64,000 bases of DNA, taken from SAR86 cluster bacterium AG-390-O18 (GTDB taxonomy: Bacteria; Pseudomonadota; Gammaproteobacteria; Magnimaribacterales; AG-339-G14). A program made the translations under genes and the position numbers. The stretch is taken from positions 64,529 through 128,528 of the forward strand of contig QCHF01000002.1 in assembly GCA_003279605.1 (NCBI GenBank), in the 5' to 3' direction. Below, piece by piece: positions 61,544 through 62,933 of this stretch (the stretch's first letter is position 1; each line of letters opens with the position of its first letter). Under the pieces are notes generated by a model. The model saw nothing but the letters and a program-made list of their open reading frames with translations. It was not told the DNA's origin and searched no databases.

Positions 61544-62933
61544 AAATAAAAAAATTTGGATTGCTGACGATGATGAATCAATCAGATTTGTTTTAGAGTC
61601 AGGTTTATCAGAAGCAGGTTTTAATGTTTCTACTTTTGAAGATGGAAATGAAGTAGTAAATAAGCTTGATATTGAATCGCCTCACCTTTTGCTAACTGAC
61701 CTTAAAATGCCTGGCAGAGATGGTATGGATTTATTAGAAACTTTTCGTAATGAACATCAAAAAGTTCCAATAATTATTATGACAGCACATTCTGATTTAG
61801 ATACCACAGTTGATGCTTTTGAAGCGGGAGCTTGGGACTACATTGCCAAGCCTTTTGATTTAAATACCGCAATAGAAAAAATCAACAAAGCAATTGCTGA
61901 AAAGAAAAATGTACAAAAGAAACTTTCAGAAAACGAAGAAATCAATCTCAGAGCAGGCAAGATTCTTGGAAAATCTCCAGCAATGCAAGATTTGTTTAAT
62001 TCAATAGGCAAACTATCTCACTCTAACAGTACAGTTTTGTTAGTTGGAGAGTCAGGTACAGGGAAAGAATTGGTATCTCAAGCAATCTTCGAACACTCGG
62101 ACAGATCCAAAAAAAAATTAATCTCTTTGAATGTTGCTGATATACCTGTCGAGCTATTAGAGTCTGAATTATTTGGCCATGAAAAAGGGGCTTTTAAAGG
62201 TGCTGGTGATCAAAGAATAGGTAGATTTGAGCAAGCTGATAAGGGAACTCTTTTTCTTGATGAAGTTGGAGATATGCCTCTAGAAACTCAAACCAGATTA
62301 ATAAGAGTTTTATCGAGTGGCGAATTTTATAGAATTGGAGGAAATAGTCCTGTTAAAGTGGATGTGAGAATTATTGCTGCAACGAACCAAAACCTTGAAG
62401 AAAAAGTTAGGAATGGGTCCTATCGAGAAGATCTCTATCACAGACTAAACGTCATAAAAATAAATTTACCTCCCTTAAGAGATAGGAAGGAAGACATCCT
62501 TTTATTAACTAGTTATTTTTTGAAGAAGTTTTCCGAAGAAGCAAGAATTAAAGTTAAAGTTCTTAGTCAGGAAGTCGAAGAATTATTTGAAAATTTAATC
62601 TGGCCTGGAAATGTTTTGCAATTGCAAAATGTTTGTCAGTCCTTAACTTTACTATCGTCAGGCCAAGAGATTTCTATGAGCGATATTCCAAAAGACCTTT
62701 CATTACAACGAAAAGGTCCAGAAATGAGTTGGAGCGATATGCTCGAATCGTGGGCATCAAAAAAATTACTCAAAGGAGACGATCATATTCTGAATAGTGC
62801 TACCCCGATATTTGAAGGAACAATGATCAAAGCTGCACTAAAAGTAACAAAAGGGAAAAAAAGTGAAGCAGCTAAGCTACTGGGCTGGGGAAGAAATACT
62901 TTAGCTCGAAAGATTACTGAGCTCGACCTTTAA
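61536..62933 (+). CDS. ntrC: Nitrogen regulation response regulator NtrC (GlnG), AAA+ enhancer-binding protein with variant GAFKGA loop
   Basis: Has a receiver domain (DDDESIR, the [10 protein letters not shown] phospho-Asp region), AAA+ motifs GESGTGKE and [15 protein letters not shown], and the C-terminal Fis-type HTH [16 protein letters not shown]. Confidence 0.92.
   Translation: [465 protein letters not shown]

Follow-up and report, generated by a model that had tools for sequence, protein, structure and literature searches.

NtrC is the textbook example of a sigma-54 activator. The NtrC proteins known to work without sigma-54 are, to our knowledge, all alphaproteobacterial and have lost the whole sigma-54 contact loop. 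In Rhodobacter capsulatus, the L1 loop of NtrC is gone, and the protein activates the sigma-70 polymerase in a phosphorylation-dependent manner, as the work of Bowman & Kranz 1998 is summarized in 10.1101/2023.06.06.543975. The NtrC of Caulobacter crescentus is needed for the expression of glutamine synthetase, acts at sigma-70 promoters and depends on the two Walker motifs, A and B (10.1101/2023.06.06.543975). The response regulator VpsR of Vibrio cholerae also acts at sigma-70 promoters (PMC6158489). The present study concerns the ntrC (glnG) gene carried by a 64,000-nucleotide stretch of the genome of SAR86 cluster bacterium AG-390-O18 (contig QCHF01000002.1, positions 64,529 to 128,528; hereafter the window). 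Its product has Lys221 in place of the Thr of the GAFTGA motif and Leu361 in place of the sensor II arginine. From sequence comparison, the evidence leans towards a model in which phosphorylated NtrC (NtrC~P) of the sampled SAR86 regulates glnII-ntrBC from a sigma-70-type promoter, through phased proximal sites and without sigma-54. An earlier reading of the window (the original prediction) had reported the Lys and proposed that this lineage may run Ntr control without sigma-54; its statement that R. capsulatus NtrC lacks the canonical loop and works with sigma-70 agrees with the summary cited above.

A lysine fixed in the L1 loop

The open reading frame (ORF) at 61536-62933 encodes a response regulator whose product matches PF00072, PF00158 (Sigma54_activat), PF25601 (AAA_lid) and PF02954 (HTH_8), each above its cut-off. 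It scores over the cut-off of TIGR01818, the equivalog model for NtrC (600.6 bits for 558.6), remains under the cut-off of the narrower PRK10923 model (585.3 for 620) and falls far under that of the NtrX model (345.6 for 600). Together with its location beside ntrB, which encodes the partner kinase, and a gene for glutamine synthetase, these matches indicate that it is a bona fide NtrC orthologue.

The L1 loop of this protein reads GAFKGA, as originally reported, and Lys221 aligns with the Thr of GAFTGA in Aquifex NtrC1 (PDB 1NY6) and in E. coli NtrC (T218). This Thr is found in more than 97% of enhancer-binding proteins, and HrpR or HrpS with Ala in its place no longer activates (PMC3105312). 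The T86A variant of PspF retains ATPase activity and does not engage the closed promoter complex (RPc) (PMC4132715), and PspF carrying the photo-crosslinking amino acid pBpa at T86 shows 0% sigma-54 interaction, 0% open complex and 146% ATPase activity (PMC3467059). The three sources bear out the earlier statement that the Thr is almost invariant and that substitutions there impair sigma-54 engagement. The string 'GAFKGA' is absent from the searchable literature, which holds no report on the effect of Lys itself.

An identical NtrC protein recurs in Tara, JGI and other metagenomes, on 18 contigs that are independent of one another, with the AAA codon in each of the ten whose DNA was fetched, and a DNA-pattern scan of JGI metagenomes yields 18 further contigs of the Lys-bearing clade (K clade). 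Lys is present in all nine of the closest cluster representatives (88-97% identity), one of which reads GVFKGA; one of the clusters has 749 members. The two K subclades, K1 and K2, are 89% identical and both use AAA for the Lys, with flanking codons that differ synonymously (GGC GCA TTT AAA GGA in the second subclade vs GGG GCT TTT AAA GGT in that of the window). Between them, the nonsynonymous divergence (dN) is 0.087 and the synonymous divergence (dS) is saturated. Across the clades, ntrC has a dN/dS of about 0.02-0.09 where computable, and the ORF is intact at 465 amino acids in all of them. Because the Lys occurs on 18 independent contigs and in nine of nine homologues, and because AAA is kept despite saturated dS, it is not accounted for by an error, a strain mutation or gene decay. 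Conservation of this kind indicates that Lys221 is genuine, long-fixed and selectively maintained in one deep SAR86 sublineage.

The distribution of residues at this position was followed in the best 120 homologues of the window NtrC, the sample on which all the SAR86 residue counts rest; the closest of them are annotated as SAR86 cluster bacterium, Gammaproteobacteria or Pseudomonadota. Thr is found in 104, Lys in 9 and Ala (GAFAGA) in 6, one sequence having no pattern match, while G-A-F-x-G-A is kept in 119 of the 120 and the loop has its full length. The codons are ACA in a clade with GAFTGA (T1), AAA in the K clade and GCC in the Ala clade (A). In pairwise identity, the K clade shares 73-75% with every other clade and the A clade falls with one of the GAFTGA clades at 85%. 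Since the former is an outlier and the latter has a GAFTGA relative, the Thr was replaced twice independently in SAR86, once by Lys and once by Ala. Among relatives of the window NtrC, taken as 150 representatives of clusters at 50% identity, the position is never occupied by Lys.

Loss of the sensor II arginine

The sensor II segment of E. coli NtrC reads WPGNVRQLEN, with R358, and the corresponding residue of PspF is R227 (PMC4132715). In HrpS, a sensor II substitution keeps roughly 10% of the activity (PMC3105312). All 120 best SAR86 homologues have Leu here, whatever their L1 residue, and one variant of the segment ends in QLLN. The clades use different Leu codons (TTG, TTA and CTT), and the substitution is for that reason old and selected. 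Arg is present in 137 of the 140 representative relatives with a recognisable motif. The three exceptions are the SAR86 representative itself and two other proteins in which L1 is degenerate and the Walker or arginine-finger motifs are damaged, and which, judged by these lesions, look like sigma-54-independent derivatives. The SAR86 NtrCs keep intact Walker A and B motifs, an intact sensor I and both arginine fingers. ATP hydrolysis by SAR86 NtrC would be expected to be impaired by the loss at sensor II.

The region upstream of glnII

Sites for NtrC were sought across the 64-kb window with the enterobacterial consensus TGCACTA-N3-TAGTGCA. The two leading matches lie directly upstream of glnII, with a weaker putative site between them (Table 1). 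The centres of neighbouring sites are 22 bp apart, and sites 1 and 2 are 44 bp apart. Their core hexamers, AGTGCA in site 1 and ATGCAC in site 2, do not vary among five lineages (K1, K2, T1, T1b and A); the distance between them is exactly 32 nt in each, and they lie at -99/-67 (K), -98/-66 (T1) or -109/-77 (A) relative to the glnII ATG. In the K, T and A clades alike, a conserved TTGnnA hexamer follows 6-8 nt past site 2. In the window, it is the first half of the TTGTTA-N18-TATTTA pair that had been described earlier and is indeed present. Because sites 1 and 2 sit directly upstream of glnII with TTGnnA only 6-8 nt further on, there is no room for an enhancer-plus-loop geometry. The layout resembles an activator array beside a sigma-70 promoter, unlike a distal enhancer serving a sigma-54 promoter. 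It is shared by the GAFTGA clades and so is not a consequence of the Lys. This arrangement suggests that NtrC occupies the sites and that sigma-70 is used at glnII-ntrBC.

The original prediction had found no TGGCAC-N5-TTGCW promoter in the 102 nt upstream of glnII, and the same holds for a much looser pattern. In the 200 nt that precede the glnII ATG, K1, K2, T1, T1b and A have no GG-N10-GC core, nor is there one in the glnII-ntrB spacer of K1, K2, T1 or T1b. In the 64-kb window, TGGCAC-N5-TTGCW has no intergenic match at up to two mismatches. Two one-mismatch matches, at 41389 and 50778, were discarded as both lie inside ORFs.

Sigma factor genes in SAR86 and its relatives

A tblastn search of the window with E. 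coli proteins found none of rpoN, lptB, hpf, ptsN, rapZ and kdsD, the only match being an unrelated ABC ATPase, and Pfam annotation of most of the larger window ORFs found rpoD and no rpoN. The fetched DNA of the SAR86 NtrC clades holds no RpoN match either, in 639 kb that are redundant and of which the K clade makes up about 76 kb of non-redundant DNA, a small part of a genome. A scan of GTDB genomes with an AT-rich DNA pattern for the RpoN box gave 54 matches, none titled SAR86; the pattern is insensitive, as it misses the bona fide RpoN in L067 (VARRTIAKYREA, with AGG and CGT codons), and its result is no evidence of absence. The SAR86 genome papers leave sigma-54, NtrC and sigma factors unmentioned, and the CheckM marker table in PMC11582366 has rpoD and rpoH and no rpoN marker. 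The rpoD gene of the window lies with dnaG at 14729-18320 (-), with a tRNA at 14628-14701; no other sigma factor gene was seen in the 64 kb.

The GTDB scan did recover PIVX01 (L035), which Ramfelt et al. treat as a sister order of SAR86 (PMC11582366) and which carries a full RpoN. It also recovered an abundant AT-rich lineage of marine Gammaproteobacteria (28-32% G+C, contigs of about 1.08 Mb) that has rpoN in the order kdsD-kdsC-lptC-lptB-rpoN-ptsN (L031, L020, L066, L067, L091 and L106, with rpoN at 10001-11356 of L106). This lineage could be a family of SAR86 (CHAB-I-7) or lie outside it, in the sister order GCA-002705445. At least five contigs that exceed 1 Mb (about 1.18-1.29 Mb) carry the NtrC of the T1 clade. 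Among some 270 listed RpoN sequences, none is on these contigs, and no listed NtrC is on the 1.08-Mb rpoN contigs, although a more divergent RpoN is still possible. As neither occurs on the contigs of the other, the listed RpoN and NtrC sets come from different genomes. No contig or assembly is common to the rpoN-bearing lineage and the NtrC clades, a weak negative that covers the best 120 matches and part of the cluster members. The absence of rpoN from this lineage is a central prediction of Ntr control without sigma-54.

A lead from synteny was not upheld: L035 has gmk-spoT in common with the window and its rpoN lies about 3 kb off, whereas the window has ribE, a phosphoribosyltransferase gene and tsaD instead. 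Region I of RpoN is atypical in L031 and L020, where it reads AMT[LQ]QIQLAIKLLQLNS in place of the usual MTPQLQQAI.LLQLS.

Proposed mechanism

In the proposed model, NtrC phosphorylated by NtrB would bind two strong sites and one weak site, each of 17 bp, upstream of glnII, the 22-bp spacing of their centres placing the bound proteins on one face of the helix. The array would lie directly upstream of a sigma-70-type promoter serving glnII-ntrB-ntrC, from which NtrC would regulate the housekeeping RNA polymerase; activation is the most probable sign of this regulation. At glnII-ntrBC, NtrC would then not act as an ATP-driven remodeller of the sigma-54 holoenzyme. Such control is likely to be a property of the whole sampled SAR86 group and not of the Lys clade alone.

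The order of events can be tentatively proposed. The change of the sensor II arginine to Leu would have come first, in the common ancestor of all the sampled SAR86 NtrCs, and would mark the shift in mechanism. The sigma-54-contacting Thr would then have been free to vary, becoming Lys in the K clade and Ala in another. More broadly, it is conceivable, if short of probable, that the lineage dispensed with sigma-54 and redirected a full-length gammaproteobacterial NtrC to sigma-70 promoters while keeping L1, with the sensor II arginine lost first, the Thr then free to change to Lys or Ala, and the remainder of the loop kept for a new contact.

Alternative explanations

Several observations weigh against control without sigma-54. 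The rest of L1 and its flanks show strict conservation between clades whose identity is only 73-75%, and the ATPase motifs other than sensor II are intact, whereas known sigma-54-independent relatives have a deleted or degenerate loop; some constraint on the loop therefore persists, and the retained loop probably still has some role. The clades that make up the majority in SAR86 keep the Thr. At the promoter, the -10 element is not clearly conserved, the TTGTTA/TATTTA pair is missing from the list produced by a simple promoter scan, and TATTTA as a -10 element would put the start within a Shine-Dalgarno-like GGAG sequence; for these reasons the -10 element and the transcription start of glnII are only tentatively placed. 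The RpoN of PIVX01 and that of the abundant AT-rich lineage described above belong on the same side. Moreover, E. coli NtrC binds the sigma-70 promoters glnAp1 and glnLp while it activates sigma-54 promoters elsewhere. A sigma-70 promoter at glnII is therefore compatible with sigma-54 targets elsewhere in the genome.

The Lys also occurs outside SAR86, which counts in the same direction. A metagenome scan for the extended L1 motif returned 27 stretches on 27 contigs, of which 18 belong to the SAR86 K clade (89-97% identity) and have Leu at sensor II wherever the segment is present. The remaining matches are unrelated bacterial enhancer-binding proteins (bEBPs), at least seven in number, from hosts of 38-58% G+C, with Arg wherever sensor II is readable (loci L116, L119, L122, L128, L131, L132, L134, L136 and L138). 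The same GAFKGA protein is found in two samples (L122 and L131), which shows that at least one further lineage has fixed the Lys; L128, from the same contig series, was also matched. At a contig coverage of 1.4x, L132 is possibly an error. L138 (2078-6582) encodes a gammaproteobacterial GAFKGA NtrC that shares 46% identity with the window protein, keeps a canonical sensor II and sits in a classical glnA-ntrB-ntrC cluster. It has a one-mismatch match to the NtrC consensus, TGCACCAAATTAGTGCA (4820-4836), past the glnA terminator and upstream of ntrB, and no convincing -24/-12 element in the 272 nt upstream of glnA, up to the contig end. For the unrelated GAFKGA activators, no clear adjoining sigma-54 promoters are established, the loci being too short to tell. 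The change from Thr to Lys thus arises sporadically elsewhere and may be tolerated in sigma-54-dependent proteins. Because the unrelated bEBPs with GAFKGA keep the sensor II Arg, Lys alone is no marker of sigma-54 independence; its occurrence elsewhere weakens what can be drawn from the Lys by itself, while the combined SAR86 evidence stands.

The proposal that Ntr control runs without sigma-54 consequently survives in part. It gains from the fixation of the Lys in its clade (the orthologues of the K clade agree throughout), from the change of Thr to Ala elsewhere in SAR86, from the loss of the sensor II Arg and from the phased sites. It loses from the fact that the -24/-12 promoter is missing in GAFTGA clades too, that L1 is intact and that the Lys alone is undiagnostic. 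The strongest competing view is that the GAFKGA protein is still a sigma-54 activator: the Lys would be tolerated, or offset by changes in region I of sigma-54, the Leu would lower the ATPase activity but leave some of it, the sigma-54 targets would lie elsewhere (amtB, glnK), and the sigma-70 promoter of glnII-ntrBC would merely be modulated, as are glnAp1 and glnLp in E. coli. This is rather unlikely, though it has the strong purifying selection on the rest of L1 and on the catalytic motifs other than sensor II in its favour, as well as the recurrence of GAFKGA in bEBPs that keep the sensor II Arg, including the NtrC of the classical cluster in L138, the possession of rpoN by sister lineages and the residual activity of the HrpS sensor II variant (PMC3105312). 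What tells against it is that, in all the cited systems, sigma-54 binding and open-complex formation are lost when the Thr is substituted, that replacement of the sensor II Arg is otherwise confined to proteins whose loops are degenerate, and that no sigma-54-type promoter is found in the intergenic regions of the window or at this classically sigma-54-dependent operon. Two independent losses of a residue conserved in more than 97% of proteins, among four or five sampled lineages, are also hard to square with an unchanged constraint.

Two further explanations dispense with any change of mechanism. The Lys codon is a single base away from the ACA of the T1 clade, and it could in principle stem from faulty sequencing or assembly, or from a mutation limited to one strain. 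This has a negligible probability and was rejected: both sets of 18 contigs and all nine representatives carry the Lys, it is conserved across the K subclades in spite of saturated synonymous sites, and the uniform AAA codon of the ten fetched identical-protein contigs refutes the doubt that had been raised about its support. Alternatively, ntrC could be a decaying, functionless remnant in a streamlined genome, with the Lys and the Leu as early lesions. SAR86 genomes are indeed small and streamlined (PMC11582366), and two residues held to be functionally critical are altered. However, the full-length ORF in all clades and its low dN/dS, the conserved phospho-acceptor region, helix-turn-helix (HTH) and cognate ntrB, and the putative NtrC sites kept in both sequence and spacing upstream of glnII make a pseudogene highly improbable, and this reading too was rejected. 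Regulation of glnII-ntrBC by NtrC from a sigma-70-type promoter is the reading retained here.

If it is correct, SAR86 has a gammaproteobacterial NtrC with an intact loop and natural changes at the two residues most closely tied to sigma-54 engagement and to ATP hydrolysis. This would show the stepwise conversion of an enhancer-binding protein into an ordinary activator, and, if sigma-54 has been lost as well, SAR86 NtrC would be a living intermediate between the classical bEBPs and the loop-less sigma-70 activators of the Alphaproteobacteria. Models of nitrogen regulation for SAR86 would change, in a group estimated by Ramfelt et al. at about 2-6% of surface-ocean microbial communities (PMC11582366), and the automatic annotation 'sigma-54-dependent' may mislead as to function in the K clade.

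The glnII-ntrB-ntrC locus and its neighbours

The window has a G+C content of 33%, and the gene order UPF0227-glnII-ntrB-ntrC-rhodanese is kept in the K, T and A clades. The ntrB product scores above the cut-off of the NR(II) model NF008293 (253.6 bits for 240), and that of glnII under the cut-off of the GlnII model NF041605 (358 bits for 500).

Table 1. Sequence features of the glnII-ntrBC region, in window coordinates
Feature	Position	Strand	Description
NtrC-consensus site 1	59236..59252	+	TGTACTAAAATAGTGCA; 1 mismatch; top match of the 64-kb window; overlaps the upstream gene's stop codon
Weaker middle site	59258..59274	+	AGCACTAAATAAAGACT; putative NtrC site; perfect palindrome TGTTCTAAATTAGAACA in K2
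NtrC-consensus site 2	59280..59296	+	TGCACTATTTTATAGCA; 2 mismatches; second-best match in the 64-kb window
Sigma-70-like elements	59303..59332	+	TTGTTA (-35-like, 59303-59308), 18-nt spacer, TATTTA (-10-like, 59327-59332)
glnII-type glutamine synthetase	59346..60329	+	327 amino acids; first gene of the cluster; Gln-synt_N + Gln-synt_C
Stem-loop in the glnII-ntrB spacer	60336..60416	+	Minimum free energy -24 kcal/mol; z = -1.67, weakly better than shuffled sequence
ntrB (glnL) histidine kinase	60449..61543	+	364 amino acids; PAS + HisKA + HATPase_c; 8-nt overlap with the ntrC start
ntrC (glnG)	61536..62933	+	465 amino acids; REC + AAA+ + Fis-type HTH response regulator
Walker A	62046..62069	+	GESGTGKE; intact
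L1 loop motif	62187..62204	+	GAFKGA (GGG GCT TTT AAA GGT GCT); Lys221 = AAA, 62196-62198
Walker B	62250..62267	+	LFLDEV; intact
Arginine-finger region	62421..62498	+	Contains YREDLYHRL; intact
Sensor II segment	62601..62630	+	Leu361 (TTG, 62616-62618) replaces the arginine of E. coli NtrC (R358) and of NtrC1 (GNVRELKN)

The glnII-ntrB spacers differ in sequence by clade, and each can form a hairpin without a clear T-run, as judged by eye for K2 and T1 (window 60330-60448; K2 contig L002, 8822-8910; T1 contig L008, 8761-8895). The stem-loop may be a partial terminator, a processing site or a 3' untranslated region element.

In the GAFAGA clade, a type-I glnA of 468 amino acids is inserted between glnII and ntrB (L010 6496-11398 and L011 948-5850), with spacers of 14 and 19 nt, and the glnII promoter is probably common to all four genes. 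In the T1 clade, a copper amine oxidase gene lies directly 3' of ntrC (L008 11419-13362; also L009 and L109-L112) and is not found in the K or A clades; it could be an amine-nitrogen scavenging gene beside the Ntr regulator. The rhodanese-domain gene is convergent with ntrC, the two stop codons overlapping by 4 nt. Its mechanically called ORF, 62930-63535 (-), has 201 amino acids vs 135 called in all related contigs, and the true start is probably internal to the longer ORF. Many K2-clade contigs from different assemblies (L002-L007 and L115) end about 5 kb 3' of ntrC, just past mutY and an iron-trafficking (PF04362) gene. At this point, a GH3 glycosidase gene follows in the T1 and A clades and other genes follow in the K1 contig L121; the break point is probably a variable region or a repeat.

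Comparison with known systems

Among the closest known systems is the NtrC (GlnG/NR(I)) of E. coli and Salmonella, an orthologue at the equivalog level that shares about 52% identity and the REC-AAA+-HTH architecture with the SAR86 protein, which likewise has an NtrB partner and a linkage to glutamine synthetase. The SAR86 half-sites match the enterobacterial TGCACTA-N3-TAGTGCA. The two differ in that SAR86 has Lys and Leu at the equivalents of T218 and R358, that its linked synthetase is of the GlnII type, and that it is without a -24/-12 element like that of glnAp2: its sites abut a sigma-70-like -35 hexamer, and there is no distal enhancer. In mechanism, a parallel is R. capsulatus, in which the sigma-70 mode of action here proposed for SAR86 has been demonstrated. 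However, the whole of L1 is deleted in that alphaproteobacterium, while the SAR86 loop is intact but for one residue and is accompanied by the sensor II change. The Walker motifs needed by Caulobacter NtrC are intact in SAR86; there, an 8-residue deletion in L1 removes GAFTGA, whereas SAR86 keeps GAF-x-GA.

The Thr replaced in SAR86 is the same L1 residue as in the PspF T86 variants and in the Thr to Ala variants of HrpR and HrpS. Those are laboratory mutants that keep ATPase activity and lose both activation and engagement with sigma-54 or the RPc, while the SAR86 Lys is a natural allele fixed under selection. NtrX and V. cholerae VpsR are likewise bEBP-like response regulators without the sigma-54-contact residues, but they belong to other orthologous groups and their loops are shortened or degenerate. 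Of the features that define a sigma-54-dependent activator, the window NtrC lacks three: GAFTGA with its contact Thr; a complete ATPase site including the sensor II arginine, the remaining ATPase motifs being intact; and a -24/-12 target promoter with a distal enhancer, of which there is none at glnII and ntrB in the five lineages or in the intergenic regions of the window. Nor does it have the deleted or degenerate L1 of the sigma-54-independent group. Judged by these features, the window NtrC fits neither the definition of a sigma-54-dependent activator nor the loop-less, sigma-54-independent group.

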